This document shows positions 1 to 13,521 of a stretch of 64,000 bases of DNA, in pieces. Source of the DNA: an uncultured bacterium (lineage in GTDB: Bacteria > Chloroflexota > UBA5177 > JANWHV01). Position 1 is the stretch's first letter, and the number at the start of each line of letters is the position of its first letter. The position numbers and the translations under genes were made by a program. The notes beneath the pieces are model-generated. The model worked only from the letters and a program-made list of their open reading frames with translations, did not search any database and was not told the DNA's origin. The DNA is taken from assembly GCA_963729625.1 (NCBI GenBank), contig CAVSOU010000010.1:1280001-1344000 (forward strand). Direction: 5' to 3'.

Positions 1-142
1 GGCGGGCCCGCCCAGCGGTGGTCAGCTCAGTCTCAGCAATCCCGCCGGGACCGACCGGGTAGTGGCCGGTGTCAACACCAATGACCTGGGATTCGTGCGA
101 GCCGATGGACCGACAGGCTTCAACATCATCACAGGAAAGTAA
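1..142 (+). CDS. 3' end of a beta-strand-repeat hypothetical protein, paralogue of the downstream 213-1118 gene (truncated by window start)
   Basis: Not in the ORF track. Frame 2 reads GGQLSLSNPAGTDRVVAGVNTNDLGFVRADGPTGFNIITGK* (TAA 140-142), which aligns by eye with the C-terminus of the next gene, GGYIGVTNRAGIARVEAGTLPDTDQGIVKTFGPGGFDYIRGRK*. Confidence 0.75.
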   Translation, partial: AGPPSGGQLSLSNPAGTDRVVAGVNTNDLGFVRADGPTGFNIITGK

Positions 143-212
143 GAGCGGTCCGCTTCACCACCGATCGCCCCCCGTTGAGAGAACGACCAGCACACGGAAG
201 GAAAGCAAGGAC

Positions 213-1118
213 ATGGATGACCATCGGTTCGCGCACCTGGAGACCAGGCTTGCACAAGTGGAAAGGGAGCTTGACGAGGCACGTCACCAGGTGGACGAAC
301 TGCAACAATCGGAGCAGAGGCTACTGCAGGTTGAGACGGGGCTGGCCGCGTCTGACCGCCTGATTGACGACCTAAAACATGGTACTACCCGCTCTCGCTT
401 CCTTGGGCGCGTTTCCACCGCCCTGACCGCGTGCGGCCTGACGGCAGTCCTTGCACTTACCGTGGGACCAGCCACGGCGGCACCGGGGCCACAACAGCTA
501 ACTGTGAAAACTCCGTTTGAAGTCCAGAATACAGCAGGGCGGGTCATCTTCCGCGTGGCCGAGCAAACCGGCGAGGGTTCGGGCGTTGTGACGGTAAGCG
601 GCAATGACGGCAAAGCACTGGTGGCCCTGCAGCCAAATGAAAGCGGCGGTAGCGGTGAAGTGGTCGTAAGGGGTGTCAAGCCGGGGCAGGTGGCGAGGCT
701 GAGCAGCTCAGGCGGAGACCTCTCGCTCCGTTTCTACAACGGCGCGAACTTGCTGGCCGGCATCGGCAGTTATGACGGGAGCGGCGTACTCCAGGTGAAC
801 AGCAAAGCCGGCAAACTGATGGCCAAGATGGGCAACAATGGTACCAGTGGCACCGTTGGCATCTACAATGCCGATGGCAGGACCAAAGGTCTGTTAGGCA
901 CAGACCCCAAGAGCGGAGACGCCGAGTTCGACCTGTTCTATGCCGACGGTACCACGCCGGCCGTCCAGCTCTCGGAAGTGGCAGTGGGCGGCTATATCGG
1001 GGTGACCAATCGCGCCGGCATTGCGCGAGTCGAGGCCGGTACACTCCCTGACACCGACCAGGGCATTGTCAAGACCTTTGGACCGGGCGGCTTCGACTAC
1101 ATCAGAGGGCGCAAGTAG
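213..1118 (+). CDS. Hypothetical protein (~301 aa): N-terminal coiled coil, internal hydrophobic/signal-like segment, Gly-rich beta-strand repeats
   Basis: ATG 213 follows AAGGA. Heptad pattern LETRLAQVERELDEARHQVDELQQ, then TRSRFLGRVSTALTACGLTAVLALTVGPATAA, then repeated units such as GVLQVNSKAGKLMAKMG and GTVGIYNADGRTKGLLG. Confidence 0.75.
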   Translation: MDDHRFAHLETRLAQVERELDEARHQVDELQQSEQRLLQVETGLAASDRLIDDLKHGTTRSRFLGRVSTALTACGLTAVLALTVGPATAAPGPQQLTVKTPFEVQNTAGRVIFRVAEQTGEGSGVVTVSGNDGKALVALQPNESGGSGEVVVRGVKPGQVARLSSSGGDLSLRFYNGANLLAGIGSYDGSGVLQVNSKAGKLMAKMGNNGTSGTVGIYNADGRTKGLLGTDPKSGDAEFDLFYADGTTPAVQLSEVAVGGYIGVTNRAGIARVEAGTLPDTDQGIVKTFGPGGFDYIRGRK

Positions 1119-1222
1119 CCCGTCTGTCTGGCAATGGAGACACGGTGCTAGTAGACACGTCGATTCCTCCCGCCGGACTCGCGTTCATGACTGTGTAGAG
1201 TCACCGCATAACCCTTACCCCA

Positions 1223-4200
1223 ATGGGGAAACCGAATAGGCCGGCGCGTGCCGGCGAAAGGACAGCTTTGATGCCCAGATTGGCCATCAACCTGGAAGCG
1301 CTGCGCGCGACGGCCACGCGGAACCCGTCCGGCGATCGGCTGTCCTGGTCCGAACAGACGCCGTCGCGGCGGCGGGTCCTGGGCATGGCTGGAGCAGCGG
1401 GTTTGGGCGCGGCGCCGATGGCGCGCCTCGTGCGGGCGCTCTCACTGGGCGACGTTGAACTGGTAGAGGGACCTGGCCGCATCGCCTTTCGGCTGGGGGG
1501 ACTCGATCTCTGGGTGATCGACGTGCGATGGTTTGCCGGATCGCCGTCGCTGCGCGTGATGCACGGACAGAACCAAGTGCACATCACGCTCCGCGGCGCG
1601 CGACTTGCCGGCACGCCGCTGCCGGCGGACCTGACCTGCGATCTGCGCCGCGCACTGGCCGGTTGGCGAATCGCGATCTCGCTGGGGCTGGGAGGATTCA
1701 GCGCCGAGGGAGCGCTGGAGCCGTGGCTGCGCGGCCAGGGGCCACTGCGAGGCGCGGCACGGCTTGACGCAGAGTTTCCCTTGCAAGCTGGAGCCTCGCT
1801 GGCGCTCCACGGCGTGGCCGCCGCCTCGTTCTCGCCCTCCTGGGAGCTGCGCCTTGACGCACAAAACGTCGTGGTACTCCACGATGCGGGCGCCGGCCCA
1901 CTGGCCGCCGACACCGCGATCCTGCAGCCGCTCCCGGCCGAAGCCCCAAGTCTGCTGCGCGACCCTGCCGCCAGACGTACCGCGCTCTCGCTGCGACGGG
2001 GAACCCACCCCTGGACGCTGGCGCCGAACCTTCGCCTTCCCGCGGGCGCCCGCCTGCTGCATGGGCCGGCAACCTTTGACGCGCTCAGCCTGGAGTGTGG
2101 AGAGGCCAGGACCGGAATAGCAAGGTACGCGCTCGCCGTCACCAGCGCGGCCGGCGCCGACCTTGCCTATCAGCCGCACAACGCGTTGACCGGCAGCGAC
2201 GGCGCGCCCTTCACCCTCCCTCTGAGCGCGGCATCGTATGTCCTGGTGCTGGCGCCGTATGGACGGCAAGAAGCCCTGCTGGCACGGCTGCGCGAGGAAC
2301 CAGTGCGATTGGTCTTGGGCGGACACACGCTGGACCTTGTCGACACGGCGGATGCGCCGGCGCTTGAGCTCGCCAGCACAGCGCCGCCACGGCTATCGGC
2401 TGCCGTGGCAAGCGCGCAGCTGTCGCTGCGCGGTGCGCTGGTAGAACCGTTGGCACCGCCGCCACATGCCCGGCTGGCCATCACTGGCCCTGGGCTGGCC
2501 GACACAACGGCCGGCGCCTGGGCAGTGCTGCGGCTGGGTGCCCCTCAGCTTTCAATCAGCAACCCCTCGTTCAACATCGTGCGCCCCGACGATCTGTTGG
2601 TGCTGACATTCGAGTGTCTGGACTTCGTGCTGCAGATCGACGCCAGCGGCGCGGGTGCGTTGGTGCCTGCGAGCGGCGCGGCCAACCCCACGCTGATCGT
2701 ACGCTTCCCGCCGCAGCACATCCAGGAGCAGGCGTTCTTCCGCCGGGTGACCAGCTACCCGGTGCCCAAAGGCGATTCCGATGCGTCGACAGGCCAGGAG
2801 ACGCCTCGGCAGCCGGCTAAGGCCTACCTCGCGGAGGAGAGCAGGCTGGTCTTCGGGCTGGGCCCGGGAATGACGTCGATTCCGTTCACCCTGGAGTCGC
2901 TGCTGGACTGGCAGCAATTCACGCCGCTCCTGACCGGCACCGCCCGGCCGCCGGTCCATGTGCGGCGTCGTGTTTCGATCACGCATGCCGGCAGCAGCAC
3001 GGGCATTTCCCAGACAACGGCCTCGGCGCTGGCGGTCGGCCCGCTGGCGCAGATCCTCAGGCAGCAGCTCCTGCACCCGGCACCCTCGCAGCCCGGGGCA
3101 CGCGAGACGGCAATTGAAGCTCCCTGGCGCCTGATCATGTCGCCGGTGCCGTCCGGCGTCTGGCTGCATTCATTCTCGCCGGTGACCGACCACGGCCGCA
3201 CCGAGCTCTGGCACACCCGCCTGGGGGTCAAGCTCGCCCCGGCGCAGCCCGCGGACCCGCCGTCATTGGTCGATCTACACTATGTCTATCAGCCGCAGGG
3301 TACGGGCCTGGACCGCAAATACGTGGTCACCGGCGAGATCCTCTCGCAGGGCCGGCCGGTCGACGCTTACGGCGCGGATGCGCCGGTGCCCGACCGCGTG
3401 GTACGGGCGGTGTGGTCGCGCGACTACCAGACCGGTAAGGTCGATGCGCCGGCGAACCCGAGTTTCCGTGCATCGCTCAACGCCAACGACCGCTACCAAA
3501 TCGTGCGCCTGAGCGCCGACTTCTCGCACGAGGCATTGAAGCAGCAGCCGTATCAGCCCCCTGCCATCGCCGCGAACCGCCTGATGCTCAGCGGCCTGGG
3601 TGCGTGGCTGGACCTGCGCGGTTCCTTCAGCCCCTCCGCGCTCAGTCTCTCGGTGGAGGAATGGGTGCACCGCGGCGCCATGGGGCGCGATGCCTACGTA
3701 CGGGTGGTCTATCAAGGGTATCTGTTCCCCTTCGGCCATCGCGCCTCGCTGGTCAAGGTGACGGAGCGCAAGTTCTTCGTGGAAAGCGGCAAGAACGTCG
3801 CCTACCTTCTTCAGCGCATGTTCATCGTGGTCCGCGAGCCGATCAAGCAGTTCCGCGTTTCCGGTCAGGTCGACGACCAGCAGAACTCCGTCGATCGCCA
3901 GATGCCGTTCAGCCAGGTGCGCAGCACCACGATCACCACGCCGGATCTGGATATCCCGCAGGGCATCCTCGCCGGCCAGCCCCATGAGAATGCGTTCGTG
4001 CCGCGCGTGGCCGGGAGCGACTTCCTGTTTCACCTCGCCAGCGCCGACGTGACCGGCCAGACCGTTGAGTTCACGGCGCCGATGGCCTTCGTCACTGCCA
4101 ATAACGACCTTGCATTCAATGCGGTCGCCATGGACAGCGTGCGCGCGTACATGCTCGGCGATGTATCAAAGGGACTGCCACCGCGCACGACCTATCAGAC

Positions 4201-5935
4201 GTCCGGGCAGAACGTCGCCTTTGCCGAGAGCGCTGCTTCCGGCGACACGACGCTGCATGCCATGGACGTCACGTTCTCCACCTTCAAGCCGAAGACCTCG
4301 GTGCTGGAGCTCAAGAGGTTTGACCAGCCGGCGTTCTATCCGGTGCTGGCACGGGCGTCGGTGAAGATCCCCGTGCTGGAGGCTCTGCTTCGCACGGGCC
4401 AGGTACCGCAGGTCAAGGTAAGCGGCTTCTATCTCAAGTATGGTTTCGGCGACCCCCGCAACGTAGGGGAGATCTACCTGGAGATGGTCGATGCCAACGC
4501 CAGCCGAGTCTCCTTCTCCGGCTCGGGCTCGGGCCCGGAGGGGAGCCTGGGCGTGATCTCACCCACGTACAACATCGCGGGTATGTCGCGCAAGCAAGGT
4601 CCGGTCGGCAACCCGCTCGACCAGATTGCTGCCGGCTCTTTCAGCGACACGAGCAAGACGTTCTATAACCAGTTCTTCGATCCTTCGCAGGCCAAGATCC
4701 TCGGCGGCCTCAGTCTCGGGGACGTGGCGCACAAGCCGACCAACCCCTCGGACCTACCGATGTTGCTGCAAGGCAATGACCACGAGAATCCGAACGATGT
4801 CGATAGCCCGCTCACGCACAAAACCTACAGTCTCAGCTGGAAGCCGAAGGTGCAAAGCTTCGGACCATACAAGCCCGATACCGGCGATATCGACGCCTCG
4901 AAGAACGGCGCCCTGTCGGTGATTGCCTCCTCCGAACGGGACTACACCGGCAAGCCAGGCAGCTATAAGGTCGAGGGCAAGCTGACCAATTTCGCGCTGG
5001 ACCTGTTCGAGGTGATAGTCACGCACTTCGACGAATTCAGTTTTACCTACGGCGCCGACGGCAAGCTGGGTGTCAAGCCGAAGGGGATCAAGGTTGAATT
5101 CGGTGGACCGCTCTCCTTCGTGAACGACCTGAAGAAAGTCATCCCGGGTGGCGGCGATTCCGGCTCCTCCGGCTCGGCGAGTAGCAGCAGCGCGGCATCC
5201 GGCGGTTCCTCATCGGCACCACCTGCTCCCGCCGCCAGCAGTGGGCCTGACATCGGTGGCCCGTTCGTCGATCCGTCGCTGGATCACGTGGATGCCGGCT
5301 TTCGGATCCACCTGCCGTCTCTCTCGGTTGGCCTCTTTGCCCTCACCAATATCAAGTTCGGGATGGTCTTTACCGTCCCATACTTCGGCGACCCGGTTAC
5401 CGCGGCCATTACCTTTGGCTCTCGCAGCGAGCCGTGCCACCTCGAGATCAGTCTCTTCACCGGCGGGTTGTTCTTCGGCATCACGGTGGGAATGGATGGC
5501 GTGCACAGCCTGGAGGCGGCGATCGAGTTTGGGGCGAGCGCCTCGCTCGACTTCGGGATCGCCAGCGGGACGGTCTATGCCATGGCCGGCATCTATTTCA
5601 AGTTCACGCCGGCCAAGCCGGCAACGGCGACCACGCCGGCCATCCCGGATGTCGCCAGCTTGACGGGTTACTTCCGCGCCGGCGGCGCCGTCGAAGTGCT
5701 GGGGATCGCCTCGGTCTCCATCGAGCTCTACCTCGGCCTGACCTATGAGAACAGGGGCGGCCATGGCGTGGCCTATGGGCAGGCGACGCTTACCCTGGAG
5801 GTCAGCGTCCTCTTCTTCAGCAAGTCCTTCAGCGTCAGCGTGGAACGCGAGATTGCCGGATCGGATCCGCACTTTATCGACCAGATCAGCCACGGCGATT
5901 GGGACGAATACCAGGCGGCGTTCGCCACGGCATGA
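1223..5935 (+). CDS. Giant hypothetical protein (1570 aa) with twin-arginine-like leader and amphipathic beta-rich C-terminus
   Basis: Long ORF with high-GC third positions. SRRRVLGMAGAAGLGAA near the N-terminus. C-terminal alternating strands (LEAAIEFGASASLDFG, LTGYFRAGGAVEVLG, AYGQATLTLEVSVLFFSKSFSVSV). Start uncertain (1223 or 1271). Confidence 0.85.
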   Translation: MGKPNRPARAGERTALMPRLAINLEALRATATRNPSGDRLSWSEQTPSRRRVLGMAGAAGLGAAPMARLVRALSLGDVELVEGPGRIAFRLGGLDLWVIDVRWFAGSPSLRVMHGQNQVHITLRGARLAGTPLPADLTCDLRRALAGWRIAISLGLGGFSAEGALEPWLRGQGPLRGAARLDAEFPLQAGASLALHGVAAASFSPSWELRLDAQNVVVLHDAGAGPLAADTAILQPLPAEAPSLLRDPAARRTALSLRRGTHPWTLAPNLRLPAGARLLHGPATFDALSLECGEARTGIARYALAVTSAAGADLAYQPHNALTGSDGAPFTLPLSAASYVLVLAPYGRQEALLARLREEPVRLVLGGHTLDLVDTADAPALELASTAPPRLSAAVASAQLSLRGALVEPLAPPPHARLAITGPGLADTTAGAWAVLRLGAPQLSISNPSFNIVRPDDLLVLTFECLDFVLQIDASGAGALVPASGAANPTLIVRFPPQHIQEQAFFRRVTSYPVPKGDSDASTGQETPRQPAKAYLAEESRLVFGLGPGMTSIPFTLESLLDWQQFTPLLTGTARPPVHVRRRVSITHAGSSTGISQTTASALAVGPLAQILRQQLLHPAPSQPGARETAIEAPWRLIMSPVPSGVWLHSFSPVTDHGRTELWHTRLGVKLAPAQPADPPSLVDLHYVYQPQGTGLDRKYVVTGEILSQGRPVDAYGADAPVPDRVVRAVWSRDYQTGKVDAPANPSFRASLNANDRYQIVRLSADFSHEALKQQPYQPPAIAANRLMLSGLGAWLDLRGSFSPSALSLSVEEWVHRGAMGRDAYVRVVYQGYLFPFGHRASLVKVTERKFFVESGKNVAYLLQRMFIVVREPIKQFRVSGQVDDQQNSVDRQMPFSQVRSTTITTPDLDIPQGILAGQPHENAFVPRVAGSDFLFHLASADVTGQTVEFTAPMAFVTANNDLAFNAVAMDSVRAYMLGDVSKGLPPRTTYQTSGQNVAFAESAASGDTTLHAMDVTFSTFKPKTSVLELKRFDQPAFYPVLARASVKIPVLEALLRTGQVPQVKVSGFYLKYGFGDPRNVGEIYLEMVDANASRVSFSGSGSGPEGSLGVISPTYNIAGMSRKQGPVGNPLDQIAAGSFSDTSKTFYNQFFDPSQAKILGGLSLGDVAHKPTNPSDLPMLLQGNDHENPNDVDSPLTHKTYSLSWKPKVQSFGPYKPDTGDIDASKNGALSVIASSERDYTGKPGSYKVEGKLTNFALDLFEVIVTHFDEFSFTYGADGKLGVKPKGIKVEFGGPLSFVNDLKKVIPGGGDSGSSGSASSSSAASGGSSSAPPAPAASSGPDIGGPFVDPSLDHVDAGFRIHLPSLSVGLFALTNIKFGMVFTVPYFGDPVTAAITFGSRSEPCHLEISLFTGGLFFGITVGMDGVHSLEAAIEFGASASLDFGIASGTVYAMAGIYFKFTPAKPATATTPAIPDVASLTGYFRAGGAVEVLGIASVSIELYLGLTYENRGGHGVAYGQATLTLEVSVLFFSKSFSVSVEREIAGSDPHFIDQISHGDWDEYQAAFATA

Positions 5936-5947
5936 AGGAGATTGCAT

Positions 5948-8900
5948 ATGTCTGAGCAGATCATCTGGACCGCGTTGCCCCACGGCATCGCCAATGGCCG
6001 CCTGCGGCTCTCGATACTGATCTCGCCGCGCCTCTCAGGCGCCGGCACGCTGACGCTGAACGATTTCCCGCATTTTCAAGACTGGCCGGCAGTCGTGCGC
6101 GGGCTGAGCTTCACGGCAGCGTTTGACGGCGGGCCGGCGCTCGCCGCGACGCCGCTGTTCCGCGGACCGCATCCATTCAATGCAGCCAGACCGGACTCCT
6201 CCCTCTGGAAAGCGATCTTTCCACACACGACAACCGTGACCTCCTACGCGTTCGACGATTACTCACAACAACTGATTCGCTCCGTGCCGATCGGCAGAAT
6301 CCATGACGACCTCAAGGGACGGTATCTCCAGGTTGCCCATGCTGTCGCGGACGCTCCGCACCTGTTGCCGGATTCAACACAGGTGCTGACGCACTTCGCG
6401 GAGGTCGTGCCGGGGGCGACGCGCCTGCTCGCCTATTCACGCATCCTCAAGCAACAGTCGGCCGTCAGGCAGCTGCTGATCGAGTCCAAACAGGCTGTGG
6501 TCAATCAGATCGACGACACCCTCAAGCAGCAGCGTGCACTGAAGCCCAATCAGCAAGTGGGCGGCATCGCCGGAGACTACCAGCAAATCGAGATCTTTCA
6601 TCAGCCACGCCAAGCAAGGAATCGCGTCGCCAACGCGGCGTCACCATACGTCCGCCAGCCATTGCCAACTGCTGCCGACTACCACGATCAGATCGACTTC
6701 CATCACATCGTGTCCATGCTCGGCAACTATCCGCAGCTGGCCACCCGGCTCGGACTGGTGATCGATCTGGAAGTGCCGCTTGACGCATCAATCCCGCGCA
6801 ACGGTGCAGTCCAGGTGATCAGCTCGACGTTCGGCGCACCTCCCAACGTGCACCCGCGAACACAGTACCTCCTCGACGACGTTCGTTTCGAGCCCCAACC
6901 TAGGCCCAGCGATCCACTCCTGGCGCACGGCATGCTGCAACTGTCCGCGCAGCGGGGTCTCTTCGACGTCGTACAGGTGGACGTGCACGGCGCGGCGGAA
7001 AAGGCGACGGCGATGGTCGCCAATCTGGCCTATTCGCACTCGCGAAAGGCCGGATTCGACGGCATTCCGCCGTTCCGCTCGGCGGGCCTCTCGCTCGTGC
7101 ATTCGGGTCGCGCTGCCGAGTTGGCCACGATCTTCCTCAAGGCAGCCCAGCGTCACCAGGACGCGCAGGCTAACACGCCGGTAGACCTCTACGCCGAGGA
7201 CCTGATCCGCGGCTATGTGATCGATGTGCACGATTCACAGACCGATGCCTGGCATTCGCTCTGCCAGCGGCGCGGCGACTACCACTTTGAGCGTGCGGGC
7301 GAGACGGTCACGTTGGAGGATGAAGGCGCCGTCACGCTTGCCGTCACCAGCGATTCGAGCGGCTCCTCGACCGACCTGTTTCTGCAGGAAACCATGTTTC
7401 AGTGGCAGGGCTGGAGCCTGGTGGCGCCTCGGCCCGGCAAGGCGATCGCCGCCAACGCCGATCCTGCCAACCCCAAGAGCATCACCACCACCGTGACCAA
7501 TACCTCCGCCACGCAGGCAGAGCTGTCCATCTCCTTCAAAGCACTGCCGGGCAGCCTGCCGCGCCTTCGCTTCGGCCTGCGATACGAGGTGCGAGCGCGC
7601 GCCATGGATCTCGCCGGGTACACAACCGACCCATCGTCGTCCGACGCGCGGGCCCCCGGCGCCATATCCGTCGAGCGACCCTACCTGCGTTGGGAGCCGG
7701 TAGTCTCGCCGGCGGTGGTCCTGCGCCATGCGCTCAGCGGCTCTCCGGCGGAAACGGCCAGCAGGCTCGTGATCCGGAGCGATGCAGGCAAGAGCGTCGA
7801 ACACTACTATGCCGAGATGAAGATCGGCAACCGCTATGCTGAGCGCCATATCGTGGCCCCGAGAGCAGGCCAGCTGCTGGCCGAGCAGCACGGCATGTTC
7901 GACGTGCCGCCGCCAGCCGGCAAGAACTGGTTCGAGATCATCGCCTCGCGCGACGTGAGCTTCGAAACGGCGGCCGATGGGATCAATGCGGCGCACTACG
8001 ACTCAGATCAAATCGCCACGCCCTATCTGCCGGACCCACTCGCCTCGGGCGCGGCCTTCCGGGATCTGCCGGGTACCACGCATGACAAACCGATTACCAC
8101 GGCCGATTTCTCCGGCGTTTGGCCCAACCATCGGCCCTTCCGCCTCAAGATCACCGGCGTTGCCGAGCACACGCCGCCAGCGCCACCACACTGGGACGCC
8201 GGCAAGCGCGTGCTGACCGTGCAGTTACCACAGGCGGCGATGCTGGACGTGAGTCTCAGCTGCACGCTCGACCTGCCGGCCCTGGATCTGCTCGGTATCT
8301 GGTCCTGGCTCGGTGAGACCAGGCTGGCCGGGCTCTGGCAGCAAGCAGCACTCGACGGGCAGGTCTGGATGGCCACGCCATTCACCACGCTGACGTTGGT
8401 TCACGCGGTACAACATCCCCTGATCATTCCGGAATTCACCAGCGCTTTCGCCGCTCAAAGGCGGTTGGGCGGCACCTCGGCAGTGCTGGTCGACCCCAAG
8501 ATGCCTATCGACGGCCCAAGCACGGTCAGCATGAACGTGTTCGGCCAGTGGTATGAACCGTTCGATGACCCCGCGCAGCCTGCTCCGCAGGTGCGTGCCG
8601 CACACGGTGCCGTATGCCATCTGTCGCTTCAGCCCGACGACACGACGGCACCGCTCAATCCCGCGGGTAGCGGCGAAAACCCGGCCAAGCTCCTGAATAC
8701 GCATCAGCTCGGCGACACGCGGCATCGCCGGGTGGCCTACACCGCCTCGGCCACCTCGCGCTTCCGCGAATACTTCCCATTCAGCGACGCGCAGATCGCT
8801 GCCGACCCGGCGCTGATCACCGTCACCGGAACGCCGGGCACCCTCCAGGAGCCCGATCCGCAACGTCCTGCCGCGCCACCCAGCGGGGCGCTCTCTGCTG

Positions 8901-9895
8901 GCGTGGTGGAGGTGCCGAGCACGGCACGGCCCGACATCCCGAAGGTGCTCTATGTGGTGCCCACCTTTGGCTGGGATGCCTCCGCCGGAGCTGCGAGCAT
9001 CCAGAGCGTGAGGCGTGGCGGCAGCCTGCGCGTCTACCTGGAGCGGCCCTGGTTCTCCTCGGGCGAGGACGAACTCCTCGGCGTGGTATTCTCCGCCGCG
9101 CGCGGTTTGCGCGGTACGATCCTTCGCGGATCGCAGCCGGACCCAGCCTTCTGCACCGAGTGGGGCCTGGATCCCATCCATCTCTCGGCCGATCTCCCCG
9201 CTGCCTACGCCCCTTCGCTCGGCGCGTTTACCAGTGCCGTGCGCACGCAGACAGGCCTGTCGCTGGATGAAGCCCCGAAGCGCAATGCCAGCGTGGCCGG
9301 CCATCTGGTTGCCTTCGACTCGGACCGACGTCTCTGGTACGCGGACATTACCATCGCGGCCGGGCAAGCCTACTTCCCGTTTGTCCGCCTGGCCCTGGCC
9401 CGCTACCAGCCGTTCTCGGTCGATGGCGCGCATCTCTCCCGCTTGGTGCTGGCCGACTTCATGCAGCTCACGCCGGATCGAACGGCCACCGTGACCTTCG
9501 ACCCAGGGCGGCCGGGCGCACTGCAGATCGCCGTCTCCGGACCGGTTCCTTTCAGCAGCACGAACGTCGTGGTCGCCGGCATCGAGCAGCAAGCTGGGGA
9601 CGCGCCGGATCCGGACCTGGGTTGGGCTACCGCGACAGGTCAAGGAGCAGTCGTCACGCTGCGCCTGCAGCAGGGCGGCCCGATCCGCACAAGGCGGCGC
9701 GGCGCAATCGGCACCTGGAGCGGCTCCCTGCAGGCCCCGACTGCCGGAGGTCGCCTGCGGTTGGTGCTGCGCGAATACGAGAATTATGCAGGGGACGTGC
9801 CGCTTTCGAGCCAGCTGGCGAAGCGCGTCGTCCCGAGCAGTCAGGTCGCCGGCCGGCTGGTCTATGCCGCCGTGATCGATCTGCTCCAGCCGTAG
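5948..9895 (+). CDS. Giant hypothetical protein (~1315 aa), no obvious signal peptide
   Basis: AAGGAG at 5935-5940 overlaps the previous stop and ATG is at 5948. Long clean ORF rich in Trp/Pro/Arg motifs (WQGWSLVAPRPG, LRVYLERPWFSSG, PFVRLALARYQP). Confidence 0.85.
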   Translation: MSEQIIWTALPHGIANGRLRLSILISPRLSGAGTLTLNDFPHFQDWPAVVRGLSFTAAFDGGPALAATPLFRGPHPFNAARPDSSLWKAIFPHTTTVTSYAFDDYSQQLIRSVPIGRIHDDLKGRYLQVAHAVADAPHLLPDSTQVLTHFAEVVPGATRLLAYSRILKQQSAVRQLLIESKQAVVNQIDDTLKQQRALKPNQQVGGIAGDYQQIEIFHQPRQARNRVANAASPYVRQPLPTAADYHDQIDFHHIVSMLGNYPQLATRLGLVIDLEVPLDASIPRNGAVQVISSTFGAPPNVHPRTQYLLDDVRFEPQPRPSDPLLAHGMLQLSAQRGLFDVVQVDVHGAAEKATAMVANLAYSHSRKAGFDGIPPFRSAGLSLVHSGRAAELATIFLKAAQRHQDAQANTPVDLYAEDLIRGYVIDVHDSQTDAWHSLCQRRGDYHFERAGETVTLEDEGAVTLAVTSDSSGSSTDLFLQETMFQWQGWSLVAPRPGKAIAANADPANPKSITTTVTNTSATQAELSISFKALPGSLPRLRFGLRYEVRARAMDLAGYTTDPSSSDARAPGAISVERPYLRWEPVVSPAVVLRHALSGSPAETASRLVIRSDAGKSVEHYYAEMKIGNRYAERHIVAPRAGQLLAEQHGMFDVPPPAGKNWFEIIASRDVSFETAADGINAAHYDSDQIATPYLPDPLASGAAFRDLPGTTHDKPITTADFSGVWPNHRPFRLKITGVAEHTPPAPPHWDAGKRVLTVQLPQAAMLDVSLSCTLDLPALDLLGIWSWLGETRLAGLWQQAALDGQVWMATPFTTLTLVHAVQHPLIIPEFTSAFAAQRRLGGTSAVLVDPKMPIDGPSTVSMNVFGQWYEPFDDPAQPAPQVRAAHGAVCHLSLQPDDTTAPLNPAGSGENPAKLLNTHQLGDTRHRRVAYTASATSRFREYFPFSDAQIAADPALITVTGTPGTLQEPDPQRPAAPPSGALSAGVVEVPSTARPDIPKVLYVVPTFGWDASAGAASIQSVRRGGSLRVYLERPWFSSGEDELLGVVFSAARGLRGTILRGSQPDPAFCTEWGLDPIHLSADLPAAYAPSLGAFTSAVRTQTGLSLDEAPKRNASVAGHLVAFDSDRRLWYADITIAAGQAYFPFVRLALARYQPFSVDGAHLSRLVLADFMQLTPDRTATVTFDPGRPGALQIAVSGPVPFSSTNVVVAGIEQQAGDAPDPDLGWATATGQGAVVTLRLQQGGPIRTRRRGAIGTWSGSLQAPTAGGRLRLVLREYENYAGDVPLSSQLAKRVVPSSQVAGRLVYAAVIDLLQP

Positions 9896-9973
9896 GAGAA
9901 ACCACCATGGTTCACAGGCAGAGAGAGTTTGAGGTCAGCGCCGACGTAAGCCGGCAGTTCAGGGAGGTACGGC

Positions 9974-11086
9974 ATGCGTGGTTATCAGCCACACCCGCCG
10001 AGGGATGGCCGATTCAGCATCGCCGCGGACGGTAAGCCGGCCCGCTCGCGTGCTTTCAGGACAACAGCAGCCGTGTTGCTCGCTGCCTGCCTGGCCATTA
10101 CCATGCTGGCATGGCCCGCCGGCACACGGTCTGCGCGCCAGCAGGATCAAGTGGTTGTCACCATCGACCCCGCGATTGGTTTGGCGGGCAGCACCTTCTC
10201 GATCGGCGCCTCGGGCTATTCCTCGTTCGTGGTTCAGATTCAGGCCACTGCGTTCATCCAGTTCGACATGAACGGGCAGCCGGTTACGATCGGCCAACAG
10301 GCGATTGAGTACTGCCCAAATTCCCCACAGGACATCCAGGTCTACGGATTTGGCGCGCCGTGCGGCCCGGGCGTTTTGGTGACGGTACCGGCCGATGCCG
10401 CGCCCGGCCCTCATACGGTGACGGTGCACGTGCCGAATGCCAACCCCCTCCTGGTGGGCGGCGCCATCGACGTGCAAACTACCTACACCGTGATCGCACC
10501 GGATACGGCCACGCCGACCATCACGGACACCCCCACGCCGACCATCACGGACACCCCCACCGCGACAGTCACGCCTACCGCGACCGGCACACCCACATCG
10601 ACAGTCACGCCCACCGCGACCGGCACACCCACATCGACAGTCACGCCCACCGCGACCGGCACGCCCACATCCACCGCTACAGGCACAGCTACGTCGACGG
10701 CCACGAACACGGCACCCTCAACCGCCACCAGTACTCGCTCGGCCACCAGCACACCAGCGAGGGCCACTGCTTCCGCCACGTCTACGCCGGGCAGGCCAGT
10801 GGCCGTGCTGGTTACGCCCCTCTTCTCGATCGGCAAACTGATCCTGACCGTTCGCGGTCAACCGTTGGCGGCGGTCAACATTTCCCTTGCTATCCAACAC
10901 AGCCAGAAGGGCGTCGTCAGCAAGGTGTATCAGGTGAAGAAGACCGGTACAATGGACTCGAAAGGCGGCTTCTCCACCGTGCTGCCCATCACGTATCGCG
11001 GTCGAGGTCTGGCCGCGCTTATCGTGATCGTCAACGGTCAATCGAAGGGCGTTCGGCTGAGTCGCACGTACCGCTACAGCGGCTGA
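9974..11086 (+). CDS. Secreted/surface protein: signal segment, Ig-like beta domain, Thr/Pro stalk, basic C-terminal beta domain
   Basis: AGGGAGGT RBS at 9961-9968, hydrophobic AAVLLAACLAITMLAWPA, TPT repeats, Lys/Arg-rich C-terminus. Confidence 0.75.
   Translation: MRGYQPHPPRDGRFSIAADGKPARSRAFRTTAAVLLAACLAITMLAWPAGTRSARQQDQVVVTIDPAIGLAGSTFSIGASGYSSFVVQIQATAFIQFDMNGQPVTIGQQAIEYCPNSPQDIQVYGFGAPCGPGVLVTVPADAAPGPHTVTVHVPNANPLLVGGAIDVQTTYTVIAPDTATPTITDTPTPTITDTPTATVTPTATGTPTSTVTPTATGTPTSTVTPTATGTPTSTATGTATSTATNTAPSTATSTRSATSTPARATASATSTPGRPVAVLVTPLFSIGKLILTVRGQPLAAVNISLAIQHSQKGVVSKVYQVKKTGTMDSKGGFSTVLPITYRGRGLAALIVIVNGQSKGVRLSRTYRYSG
10509..10672 (+). repeat. Intragenic tandem repeats encoding the Thr/Pro linker (24-bp x2 and 36-bp x3)
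   Basis: CCACGCCGACCATCACGGACACCC twice, then GACAGTCACGCCyACCGCGACCGGCACrCCCACATC three times (TVTPTATGTPTS). Confidence 0.85.
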
Positions 11087-11344
11087 GCACGGCTTGCATT
11101 CTCCACAAACTAACGGGGCTCCGCCCCGGACCTCAAGATGTACGGATAGGAACTGGTGCGGTGGGTCGTAGCCCCTGGTTGCCGGCACACACGAAGTACG
11201 GTAGAACCGCGCTGACCTTACACGGTGGGCGTAAACTGCAAGGAGTGGTGCATCGACGCTGGCGTCTCAATCAAAGGATGATGTCGAAGCGCTCCTAAAA
11301 CCGAGTCACCGCTCGAAATCCTCGACCGCCACAAGCTGGAGGCA

Positions 11345-11674
11345 ATGATGGCGATGCCGCGCCTGCAGATGCGACTCCTGGGCGGCTTCAACCTCAGCTA
11401 CGATAATCTGCCCATACAGGCAGTGCATTCCGCACGCCTGCACGCGCTGCTCGCCTACCTCCTCCTCCATCGTGATGCGCCGCAACCTCGGCAACATCTC
11501 GCATACCTGTTCTGGCCGGACGCAACCGAGCTGCAGGCGCGCAGCAACTTGCGCCAACTGCCGCACCAGTTTCGTCACGTGTTGCCTGGTGCCGACGGCT
11601 TTCTCGGATACCTGGGCGCCGCCTGCTCGATCGGCGCTTCCCCCTTGCGGCGTTTACGCAGTTGTATAAGGTAA
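11345..11674 (+). pseudogene. Truncated SARP/AfsR-type (wHTH-BTAD) transcriptional regulator N-terminus
   Basis: LRLLGGF...ALLAYLLLH..PQPRQHLAYLFWPDATELQARSNLRQ is the typical wHTH start of BTAD regulators. Similarity ends at ~11605 with no BTAD or ATPase domain. Confidence 0.75.
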
Positions 11675-11773
11675 TTGTACGCCACACCTATCGATGGACA
11701 GCGCGCTGAACAGGTGCCTTCCTGAGAAGGACGGAAGGATCTCCGTCCCGCGCACGGCGGCTCCTTGTTCTAG

Positions 11774-13521
11774 CCTGGATTATGCGGGAACGAGCAGCTG
11801 AGCCGCAGGGAGGCAGGTTTCAGGCTACGAACCGTTGAGCGTGGTTGATTGCTAGGGTTCGCTCCCTTATGGTCAAGTTCTTAGACGACGACCAACGAGC
11901 GGAGCGAACCCTATGGCTACTCAGTCTGCCACACAGCGCTATCACTTTGCCACCCAGACCGGGTTGGCGCTCGAGGCCCTCTTTGATGGTGGCCGCCTGA
12001 CCAGCGATGGCGGCCTGCCCTGGCTCGCCAAGGCCGACGCGGTGTTGGGACTGTGTGCCGGGCTGGCAGCGAGCCTGCCGGAGCGCCGCCAGCGGCACAT
12101 CCGCTACTCCCTGGAGGGTCTGGTCCGCCAGCGCGTGTTCCAGATTGCCTGCGGGTACGAGGACCAGAACGATGCCAACACCCTGCGCCACGACCCCCTG
12201 CTCAAGATGGTCTGCGGGCGTCTGCCGGAGAGTGGTCCTGCGCTGGCCGGCCAGTCCACCTTCAGCCGCCTGGAGAACAGCGTGGACCGGCAAGCCTGTC
12301 GCCACCTGGCCCACGCCCTCCTGGAGGTGTACCTGGTGGCGAGGGAACAGGACGGCGTGCCTCGGCACATTCTGCTGGACATCGACAGCACGGATGACCC
12401 CACGCACGGGCACCAGGAAGGGGCGGCGTACCACGGGTACTACCGCCAGCACCAGTACTACCCGCTGCTCGTCTTCGATGGCGAGACCGACCAGCTGATC
12501 ACCGCCATCCTGCGCCCGGGCACGGTGCACGGCAGCCGCGGGGTGATTACGGTGCTGCGCGTGCTAGTCCGGGCCTTTCGGCAGCGCTGGCCCGGCGTGC
12601 AGATCGAGATCCGCGCTGACGCAGCGGGCGCCACGCCCCGAATCTACCAGTTCTGCGAGCGCCACCATATCACCTACACCCTGGGTCTGGGCACCAATGC
12701 CCGCCTGGCAGCCCTGGCCGCGCCCCTGCTGGCGCAGGCCCAGGCCCAGCGCGAGGCCACCGCCGCGGAGAAGGTCCGCCTGTGCGGCGAGACCACCTAC
12801 CAGGCCGAGAGTTGGGACCGCGCACGGCGCGTGGTCTACAAGACCGAAGCCCTGGCCAAGGGGCCCAATGTCCGCTTCGTCGTCACCAGCCGCACCGACG
12901 CGCCGACAGACCTCTACGATTGGTATGTCGATCGGGGCACCCCGGAACTGTGGATCAAGGACATCAAGCTCGCCTGCTTCGCCGACCGCCTGAGCGACCA
13001 TCGCTTCTGGGCCAACCAGTGCCGCCTCATCCTGCACGCCGCCGCCTATTGGCTCCTCGATACCCTCCGACGCTGGCTGACTGCCCGCGGCCTGCCCCGT
13101 CTGCAGCTCGATACCCTGCGGCTCCAGCTCATCAAGATCGGCGGCCGGGTGCGGGAAGGGCTGCACCGCATCCGCCTGCACCTGGCCAGCAGCCATCCTG
13201 GTCAGGCCCTCTGGAGCCTGCTCGGTGCGCAGCCGCCCGGCCACGCGCCGCCGTTCCTCCGCTAATCCGTCCCGCTGCTGCCGATCGCTGCCGACACCGC
13301 GACTGTCCCTGTCGCGGTACGACCCCTCACGCCGTCCTCCCCGCGCCAACTGCCCCACCAGCGAGCCCAGCCACGCACCGCTGGACGCACGCTGGATCCT
13401 GCCGCCGCACCAGGCCCCCTCTGCATGCCGGCGCACATTACCTCGACGCGATGCGGGCCGCGACGAGCCTCCCCTCAACCTTGCTTAGCTCGCTTCCTTC
13501 AGGGGTCCCGCATAATCCAGG
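11774..13521 (+). mobile_element. IS1380-family insertion sequence, 1748 bp
   Basis: Perfect 16-bp terminal IRs CCTGGATTATGCGGGA (11774-11789) and TCCCGCATAATCCAGG (13506-13521). CTAG on both flanks (11770-11773, 13522-13525) is a 4-bp target duplication. Single transposase inside. Confidence 0.93.
11913..13265 (+). CDS. IS1380-family DDE transposase (450 aa)
   Basis: FDGGRLTSDGGL, GYEDQNDANTLRHDP, LDIDSTDDPTHGHQEGAAYHGYY, IRAD, RGTPELWIKDIK motifs. Confidence 0.93.
   Translation: MATQSATQRYHFATQTGLALEALFDGGRLTSDGGLPWLAKADAVLGLCAGLAASLPERRQRHIRYSLEGLVRQRVFQIACGYEDQNDANTLRHDPLLKMVCGRLPESGPALAGQSTFSRLENSVDRQACRHLAHALLEVYLVAREQDGVPRHILLDIDSTDDPTHGHQEGAAYHGYYRQHQYYPLLVFDGETDQLITAILRPGTVHGSRGVITVLRVLVRAFRQRWPGVQIEIRADAAGATPRIYQFCERHHITYTLGLGTNARLAALAAPLLAQAQAQREATAAEKVRLCGETTYQAESWDRARRVVYKTEALAKGPNVRFVVTSRTDAPTDLYDWYVDRGTPELWIKDIKLACFADRLSDHRFWANQCRLILHAAAYWLLDTLRRWLTARGLPRLQLDTLRLQLIKIGGRVREGLHRIRLHLASSHPGQALWSLLGAQPPGHAPPFLR

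Follow-up and report, generated by a model that had tools for sequence, protein, structure and literature searches.

Organization of the locus

The subject of this work is a pair of adjacent genes, encoding two very large proteins that we call giant 1 and giant 2, in the genome of an uncultured Chloroflexota bacterium (assembly GCA_963729625.1). They lie in a 64,000-nucleotide (nt) stretch of contig CAVSOU010000010.1, positions 1,280,001 to 1,344,000 (G000:C10:1280001-1344000 in our labels for genome and contig), which we refer to as the window. All genes of interest fall within window positions 1-11086 on the + strand. Here the open reading frame (ORF) map confirmed what a first-pass annotation had described as at least five co-oriented, closely spaced genes: five are present, with intergenic gaps of ~70-150, 12 and 78 nt. 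They comprise the 3' end of a gene for a small membrane-anchored protein of 315 amino acids (aa) (1-142; the start lies outside the window and the gene spans C10:1279195-1280142), its paralogue, a 349-aa ORF for another small protein (69-1118), giant 1 (1223-5935), giant 2 (5948-9895) and a small exported protein of 370 aa (9974-11086).

Giant 1 is 1570 aa long when read from ATG 1223 and probably 1554 aa, read from ATG 1271. An AAGGA stands 9 nt 5' of ATG 1271, which encodes M17 of the longer form, and none is found at ATG 1223; the N-terminus that begins at ATG 1271, MPRLAINLEALR, agrees with the starts of many relatives. Because of this upstream AAGGA and the family-typical N-terminus, ATG 1271 is likely the true start, as far as the sequence tells. 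At the junction of the two genes the stop codon of giant 1 (TGA, 5933-5935) abuts a Shine-Dalgarno-like AGGAG (5936-5940), which is followed by seven bases and the ATG of giant 2 at 5948, so that the gap is 12 nt. Giant 2 is 1315 aa from this ATG, in an ORF open from TTG 5942 (1317 aa). It has neither a signal sequence nor a hydrophobic leader, and its conservation starts at residue 7 (60 sequences), therefore leaving no room for a signal. The locus had been read as a 1570-aa protein with an SRRRVL leader, seen by us at residues 48-53, and a translationally coupled protein of ~1315 aa without a signal; both descriptions hold. A scan of the locus for promoters and terminators did no better than shuffles. 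Among public sequencing runs, none of RNA was listed as containing the sequence, and the DNA runs that were listed contain small shares of it only.

Two unnamed families in a conserved two-gene cassette

Giant 1 and giant 2 appear to represent two new families that have no family model, no solved relative and no informative name. Neither gave a match at E <= 0.1 in Pfam, NCBIfam, PADLOC or PHROGs, and none of four window proteins exceeded a curated cut-off in Pfam or NCBIfam. Queries against PDB sequences, with single sequences and with family profiles, returned nothing except one chance row at E 0.94. The earlier view that the giants stand outside characterized families is borne out by these searches. 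Pfam searches with 30 further giant 1 relatives yielded only sub-threshold matches to Baculo_PEP_C, CoV_S2 and Plasmid_RAQPRD, in the region before the C-terminal domain. A motif scan found no Walker A, HExxH or CxxC, no GxSxG in giant 2, and no NTPase or nuclease motif. Each giant has four cysteines, neither has an alpha-helical membrane segment, and profile-profile comparison detected no homology between the two. No paper on the pair was found in full text, subscription journals and supplements being outside the scope of that search. The pair appears to be new, with the caveat that two of its domains have familiar folds, one FN3-like and one barrel-like.

The conserved part of giant 1 has 542 relatives at E <= 0.001 among the candidates scored, and giant 2 has 825. 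With the single giant 2 protein as query, a library of 1.84 billion cluster representatives (50% identity) gave 4329 relatives at E <= 0.001, 1895 of them at E <= 1e-30. Species-representative genomes, one per species, encode a giant 2 relative in at least 581 places (581 of 597 matched stretches were confirmed). Names given by the sources are all 'hypothetical' save two, a 'putative outer membrane channel' and a 'YoxC' label. Giant 2 itself is absent from the ESM Atlas, and a Bradyrhizobium homologue stored there falls in 'hypothetical protein' clusters only. Judging by record titles, the hosts include Chloroflexota, Actinomycetota, Bacillota, Acidobacteriota, Pseudomonadota, Armatimonadota, Verrucomicrobiota, Bacteroidota, Kapaibacteriota, Planctomycetota and Cyanobacteria, among others.

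The pairing of the two genes is strict. Eighty loci were kept for the count, seven of which start inside giant 2 and have no upstream DNA; in all 73 loci with upstream DNA, a giant 1 relative stands immediately 5' of giant 2 on the same strand. These informative loci span more than 12 phylum-level groups. As the first-pass annotation stated, motifs of the giants are found again in neighbouring hypothetical genes across diverse bacteria. The gap between them has a median of 15 nt and does not exceed 60 nt in 58 of 68 pairs; the genes overlap in 15 pairs, and most pairs are coupled in translation. Similarity between loci co-varies for the two proteins (Spearman 0.49, over 2080 locus pairs that are non-independent). 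A search found no fused giant 1-giant 2 form longer than 2305 aa, which is weak evidence.

Three adjacent pairs are encoded in this genome, on contigs C10, C8 and C4. In the C8 pair (G000:C8:125872-129958, locus L017), giant 2 is broken near the C-terminus into two overlapping ORFs of 1287 and 281 aa, possibly through a frameshift or an error of assembly. The pair occurs in all four other genomes of the genus, where one giant 2 orthologue (G002:C180:37-3984), 83% identical, has one in-frame TAG. Beyond the genus its distribution is patchy: of 41 related genomes, this one counted, 11 have the pair. Plasmid or chromid records with the pair number 17, megaplasmids among them, and come from Bacillus, Streptomyces, Rhizobium, Cupriavidus and others; in RefSeq/GenBank plasmid records both genes are called 'hypothetical protein' wherever a gene table is present, the Cupriavidus record having none.

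Additional modules are seen in some family members. Fucose-lectin-like modules are fused in several relatives, and in a pair from an uncultured actinomycete (L026:4625-14911) a near-identical module of ~360 aa, like the fungal fucose-specific lectin (PF07938), is present in both partners, inserted in giant 1 and appended to giant 2. The giant 1 of that pair has no twin-arginine translocation (Tat)-like motif. Of two further giant 2 relatives (P0225 and P0164), one ends in an FHA/YscD-cytoplasmic-type domain and the other has a LAGLIDADG-like (intein-type) insert near its C-terminus.

Only the two giants are the conserved unit, a two-gene cassette of two unnamed families. When all ORFs of 83 loci were clustered, no third gene was common to more than 7 of them, and the small proteins of the window belonged to no shared neighbour cluster. 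The idea that these small proteins serve the giants as fibres or adaptors is not supported by this comparison.

Fold models of the two giants

The fold model of giant 1 covers residues 620-1570, and its numbering starts there (mean predicted local distance difference test score, pLDDT, 80.1; predicted template modelling score 0.68). The central beta-rich domain (3560-4492; model residues 160-470), mostly at pLDDT > 90, is the most conserved part and carries the GRDAYVRVVYQGYLFPFGHRASLVKVTERKF motif. The domain yielded no fold match, no search having been made with it alone. A Gly/Ser/Ala-rich linker, modelled with low confidence (5147-5251; model residues 690-724, pLDDT < 50), leads into a C-terminal amphipathic beta-meander domain (5228-5890; model residues 717-937), which the model renders as outer-membrane beta-barrel-like, with ~11 long strands followed by a helix (5873-5926; model residues 932-949). 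The structural neighbours of the giant 1 model match this C-terminal domain only, and all are outer-membrane barrels. Against pieces of 22-strand barrels the domain gives a lower root-mean-square deviation (rmsd) than against whole 14-strand barrels, which points to an open half-barrel of gentle curvature; the curvature of the modelled sheet appears to fit part of a large barrel better than a closed small one.

The strand pattern was followed in 65 family members. One face of the long C-terminal strands is hydrophobic and nearly charge-free and the opposite face is polar, an alternation that is absent from the strands of the central domain. Mean hydropathy of the hydrophobic faces is +1.6 to +3.4, with charged residues at 0-3% in eight strands and at 10% and 21% in two others. 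Foldseek comparison of giant 1 with viral models returned nothing (probability mostly < 0.2, template modelling (TM)-score <= 0.13).

Giant 2 was modelled at pLDDT 85. Its N-terminal half (5948-7687; model residues 1-580) is a mixed alpha/beta structure that yielded no fold match and is novel, and it is the predicted docking surface for the C-terminal domain of giant 1. FN3-like beta-sandwiches follow (7697-9487; model residues 584-1180), unusually conserved for such domains. Dozens of invariant Asp, His, Glu, Arg, Trp and Tyr residues are spread over the whole length of the protein, including the FN3-like region.

Predicted binding of giant 1 and giant 2

The proposal that the giants form a complex is favoured by structure prediction. 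Residues 1-760 of giant 2 and the last 235 residues of giant 1 were modelled together, each with its own family alignment. The interaction prediction score from aligned errors (ipSAE) was 0.85, 0.80 and 0.83, and the best of three controls reached 0.00. Of 157 solved complexes used for calibration, 116 score this high (0.83), as do 2 of 215 mismatched pairs; these counts hold only roughly because own alignments were supplied. Contact agreement between runs was at least 13%, and the pLDDT of the partner domain was 36-63. The docking surface on giant 2 is predicted at residues 215-260, 345-406 and 460-539, and also at 641-669. The surest contacts, those of lowest predicted error, run from the terminal helix and last strands of giant 1 to giant 2 residues ~399-403, 465-468, 496-497, 532-537 and 662.

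Strict synteny, similarity co-variation and the shared lectin-like module point the same way as the complex prediction, and an obligate heterodimer is for this reason well supported. We hold it to be very probable that giant 1 and giant 2 are a conserved heterodimer of two new families.

The putative export signal

A twin-arginine-like signal is encoded near the start of giant 1 (1364-1426). It comprises SRRRVL (ORF residues 48-53) and a 16-residue Gly/Ala-rich uncharged stretch with a mean hydropathy of 1.45, ending Pro-Met-Ala-Arg, where Arg is the next residue; V-R-A is found at residues 70-72. The twin-arginine motif begins 31 residues after the probable start M17. Such a long n-region is within the range of hydrogenase-type leaders. 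Another conserved motif (1286-1306) precedes the twin-arginine motif. It reads INLEALR here, and a loose pattern finds LNLxxLR-like forms in 35 of 63 relatives. This order, LNLxxLR-like motif and then Tat-like motif, is that of the long giant 1 forms; short forms without the optional N-terminal domain can also carry a Tat-like motif.

A fixed pattern picks out a Tat-like motif in 33 of the 63 intact giant 1 N-termini, those of all three copies in this genome among them, and one more relative (L048) has one by eye. The motifs look canonical, with S/T-R-R-x-L/F-L, a short Gly/Ala-rich stretch and a basic residue. TatC (PF00902) is encoded on contig C14 of the genome (186 bits, over the cut-off). 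Earlier it had been suggested that the pair is exported by Tat with the second protein hitch-hiking. The layout in this organism fits, with a signal on giant 1 only and TatC in the genome, and as a rule for the whole family the suggestion fails, 30 of 63 relatives having no motif. From these sequence features, we put Tat export with hitch-hiking in this organism at about an even chance.

Flanking genes and neighbourhoods

The small flanking proteins are local neighbours and lie outside the conserved cassette. Inspection upstream of the window, which the first-pass annotation had called for, completed the gene for the 315-aa protein. This protein and the 349-aa protein were taken to be tandem paralogous beta-repeat proteins; their paralogy stands (28% identity, E 2e-13), and the 'beta-repeat' label is not verified because no internal sequence repeat was detected in either. 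Each has one hydrophobic segment, at ORF residues 115-133 in the 349-aa protein. The latter, whose probable start is ATG 213, has a coiled-coil-like N-terminus and a Gly-rich, beta-looking C-terminal part; it is lineage-specific and is not conserved with the giant pair. Searches of the small window proteins in Pfam, NCBIfam, PADLOC and PHROGs gave sub-threshold coiled-coil-type matches only. The 370-aa protein does have the composition ascribed to it, with an N-terminal hydrophobic segment, a Thr/Pro-rich stalk and, beyond these, a C-terminal beta domain. It follows giant 2 in a same-genus genome only. A partial copy of the stalk protein, 68% identical and with two in-frame TAG codons, is located at G000:C13:10391-10990.

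The gene group is bounded by a DDE transposase of 450 aa (PF13701, E 4e-131; 11913-13265, + strand), ~800 nt 3' of the Thr/Pro protein. Two tandem regulators of ~830-870 aa with HTH (XRE-type), NB-ARC and TPR domains lie 5' of the locus (L016:8092-10584 and 10725-13343, corresponding to C10:1273092-1278343). At the paralogous C4 locus, a BTAD-type regulator is found upstream in place of this pair.

In other genomes, the most frequent neighbour family comprises an unnamed gene of 650-710 aa, without a Pfam match, that follows the pair at seven loci from Kapaibacteria, Balneolales and Bacteroidota-like lineages (L035, L045, L063, L066, L070, L093 and L096). An unnamed gene of ~370 aa is also near at five of them. 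The 650-710-aa gene may be a lineage-specific third component. Pfam matches of 53 neighbours were heterogeneous, and the single cases (M23, Amidase_2, a deacetylase with LysM, a Tle1-like lipase, TIR, Trypsin_2, VWA) are too few to make a theme. PADLOC matched 5 of 89 neighbour ORFs, all generically (ABC-ATPase, kinase, HTH or similar), and gave no defence-island signal. In a member of the Symbiobacteriaceae, the gene that begins 16 nt after giant 2 (L023:13835-14815) encodes a 326-aa protein with a T4 gp19-type tail-tube domain, and other contractile-tail genes are absent from the 9 kb downstream of it. On a Bacillus bombysepticus plasmid (L105, CP126687.1), a gene for a small papain-like cysteine protease lies 234 nt 5' of the pair, and a DUF1906 gene and a gene for a GrrM radical-SAM maturase are close by.

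Discussion

We propose a model where giant 1 and giant 2 form an obligate heterodimer of ~300 kDa, in which the amphipathic C-terminal sheet and terminal helix of giant 1 would dock on the N-terminal half of giant 2. In this organism, the folded complex would leave the cell by the Tat pathway through the twin-arginine signal of giant 1, and the signal-less giant 2 would hitch-hike with it. Outside the cell, the complex may act on a membrane, which is the least certain part of the model. The sheet of giant 1 could then be released from giant 2 or rearranged on it, join further copies and insert as a beta-barrel pore or translocon, and target binding could be provided by the FN3-like domains of giant 2 and the lectin modules of some relatives. 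An obligate heterodimer that is Tat-exported here, with giant 2 hitch-hiking, and membrane-active is a reading to which we give somewhat less than an even chance. A membrane-inserting or pore-forming role of the modelled half-barrel, taken by itself, seems doubtful. It is tempting to speculate further that the pair is an exported membrane-insertion machine, put together in the cytoplasm, leaving folded through Tat in about half of the lineages and being the largest Tat cargo known, with a half-barrel that is kept soluble on the partner subunit and oligomerizes into a large pore in a foreign or envelope membrane, independently of the machinery for beta-barrel assembly (BAM) and in single-membrane hosts such as Chloroflexota, Bacillus and Streptomyces and in double-membrane hosts alike; we regard this full picture as rather improbable.

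Several observations weigh against export and membrane insertion. The giant 1 relatives without a Tat-like motif include those of Bradyrhizobium, Geobacter, Paenibacillus and Streptomyces, so Tat export is not the general route of the family, and the lectin-bearing pair is among those without. In giant 1 of this locus, the twin-arginine motif is 31-47 residues from the start and behind another conserved motif. We know of no Tat cargo as large as a complex of ~300 kDa. The FHA domain at the C-terminus of one giant 2 relative is of a usually cytoplasmic type. The barrel-likeness comes from the model of giant 1 by itself, in which the sheet may be open or closed, and in the complex runs the fold of this partner domain is uncertain. 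The contacts listed for two strands involve mostly the polar face, so shielding of the hydrophobic face by giant 2 is not demonstrated. Finally, no toxin, enzyme or immunity gene was found consistently linked to the pair in the neighbourhoods.

Some of the same evidence can be read differently. The heterodimer could be extracytoplasmic or at the cell surface and have an enzymatic or glycan-binding structural role, for example in cell-wall or exopolysaccharide processing, with no pore and with the sheet as a buried core or interface. The invariant residues along giant 2 look like those of a constrained enzyme or assembly rather than of a fast-evolving toxin, fucose-lectin-like modules would suit a glycan-binding protein, and among the neighbours there are glycoside hydrolases, a LysM-bearing polysaccharide deacetylase, an amidase and an M23 peptidase. 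In the complex model, moreover, the sheet lies against giant 2. However, such neighbours vary between loci, the giants have no catalytic family in Pfam or NCBIfam and none of the catalytic motifs sought (HExxH, Walker A, GxSxG in giant 2), and a near charge-free face over ~11 long strands exceeds a typical soluble core; we consider such a role unlikely. The lectin modules and FN3-like arrays, which indicate an extracellular location, also speak against a cytoplasmic two-protein machine, such as an unrecognized defence or stress system, in which the arginine pair would be non-exporting or a tether to the inner face. That about half of giant 1 relatives, and giant 2 always, lack any signal would be expected of such a machine. 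The FHA domain and the LAGLIDADG/intein-like insert of the two giant 2 relatives are in keeping with it, as is a patchy distribution like that left by horizontal transfer, with megaplasmids and, here, a transposase just downstream. The Tat-like motifs nevertheless look canonical, PADLOC matches neither giant and only generic neighbours, and an NTPase or nuclease motif is missing, which together make a cytoplasmic machine improbable.

Two further alternatives concern the sheet itself. Its strictly amphipathic strands, with one charge-free face, could line a lipid groove, making giant 1 a lipid-transfer or lipid-binding bridge in the manner of AsmA/TamB-like or Lpt proteins, and weak Foldseek rows to LptD (probability 0.35-0.41) and to microsomal triglyceride transfer protein (0.33) agree with this. 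The strong structural matches, in contrast, are transmembrane barrels and not open grooves, although a likeness to open grooves could be masked by the closed barrels that fill the structural lists. There is no Pfam match to the AsmA, TamB or Lpt families, and single-membrane Bacillus and Paenibacillus have no second membrane to bridge. We judge a lipid bridge highly improbable. If the barrel matches are instead taken at face value, giant 1 would be a classical outer-membrane protein or autotransporter, with a passenger joined by a linker to a C-terminal barrel that resides in the outer membrane of the producer itself. This fails because the Sec-type signal is missing, the leader being Tat-like or absent even in double-membrane Bradyrhizobium and Geobacter, and because the family is present in single-membrane Bacillus, Priestia and Paenibacillus. 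Giant 1 has no Pfam autotransporter or outer-membrane protein match at E <= 0.1, and type V secretion has no counterpart of a strictly linked second giant. Omp85/BamA (PF01103) was not found in this genome, an absence that is not proven because the assembly is only 87% complete. We see next to no chance that giant 1 is an autotransporter.

In a broader context, strict pairing over more than 12 phylum-level groups, together with full-length conservation, argues that the heterodimer is a real and selectively important machine. Bacteria of soil, sediment and bioreactors hold thousands of diverged members of its two families, whose proteins are ~1300-1600 residues long. If both Tat hitch-hiking and membrane insertion were true of the pair, the size range of Tat cargo would be wider and single-membrane bacteria would possess a BAM-independent beta-barrel device. 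Even if both readings fail, the family definition helps to annotate several thousand 'hypothetical proteins', and culturable hosts exist, since the families occur in the cultured genera Bacillus, Priestia, Paenibacillus, Streptomyces, Bradyrhizobium, Rhizobium, Cupriavidus and Geobacter.

Among known systems, alpha-2-macroglobulin and complement chains resemble the C-terminal half of giant 2 in being a string of beta-sandwiches, and Salmonella alpha-2-macroglobulin and C3/C5 are among its Foldseek rows. Giant 2 differs in that the TM-scores are only ~0.06-0.1, there is no Pfam A2M match and no CxxC, and the cysteines number just four. Binary pore-forming or translocating toxins, such as those of the anthrax type and Tc toxins with a split A component, offer a functional analogy. 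Like the giants, these are large multi-protein assemblies with adjacent genes and horizontal spread, and by analogy they would share beta-sandwich receptor binding and a membrane-inserting part. The giants are unlike them in having no sequence match, no Pfam toxin family and no linked cargo or enzyme, and their conservation is higher and more collinear. A specific comparison with Tc and Rhs proteins gave no Pfam match, and the Foldseek rows for Rhs, Tc and teneurin had probabilities of 0.07-0.15 and TM-scores of ~0.05.

The last ~220 residues of giant 1 share a long, antiparallel, alternating meander with outer-membrane barrels and autotransporter beta-domains (CymA, OmpG, BtuB, BrkA, EspP). 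They depart from these in having no sequence similarity (5-14% identity in the structural rows) and no Sec signal, in the tight turns at both ends of most strands, and in a best rmsd against segments of 22-strand barrels. Giant 1 also occurs in single-membrane bacteria and is predicted to sit on a partner protein. Tat hitch-hiker complexes are exemplified by the small and large subunit pairs of hydrogenases (HybO/HybC) and by DmsA/DmsB, and the mechanism paper for this kind of export is said to be that of Rodrigue and colleagues from 1999. The giants are several times larger than such complexes, belong to no redox family and contain no cofactor motifs, CxxC included, and half of the family has no leader. 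What they have in common with Tat hitch-hikers is co-encoded subunits, a twin-arginine leader with a long n-region on one subunit only and, as predicted for the giants, binding of the partners before export.

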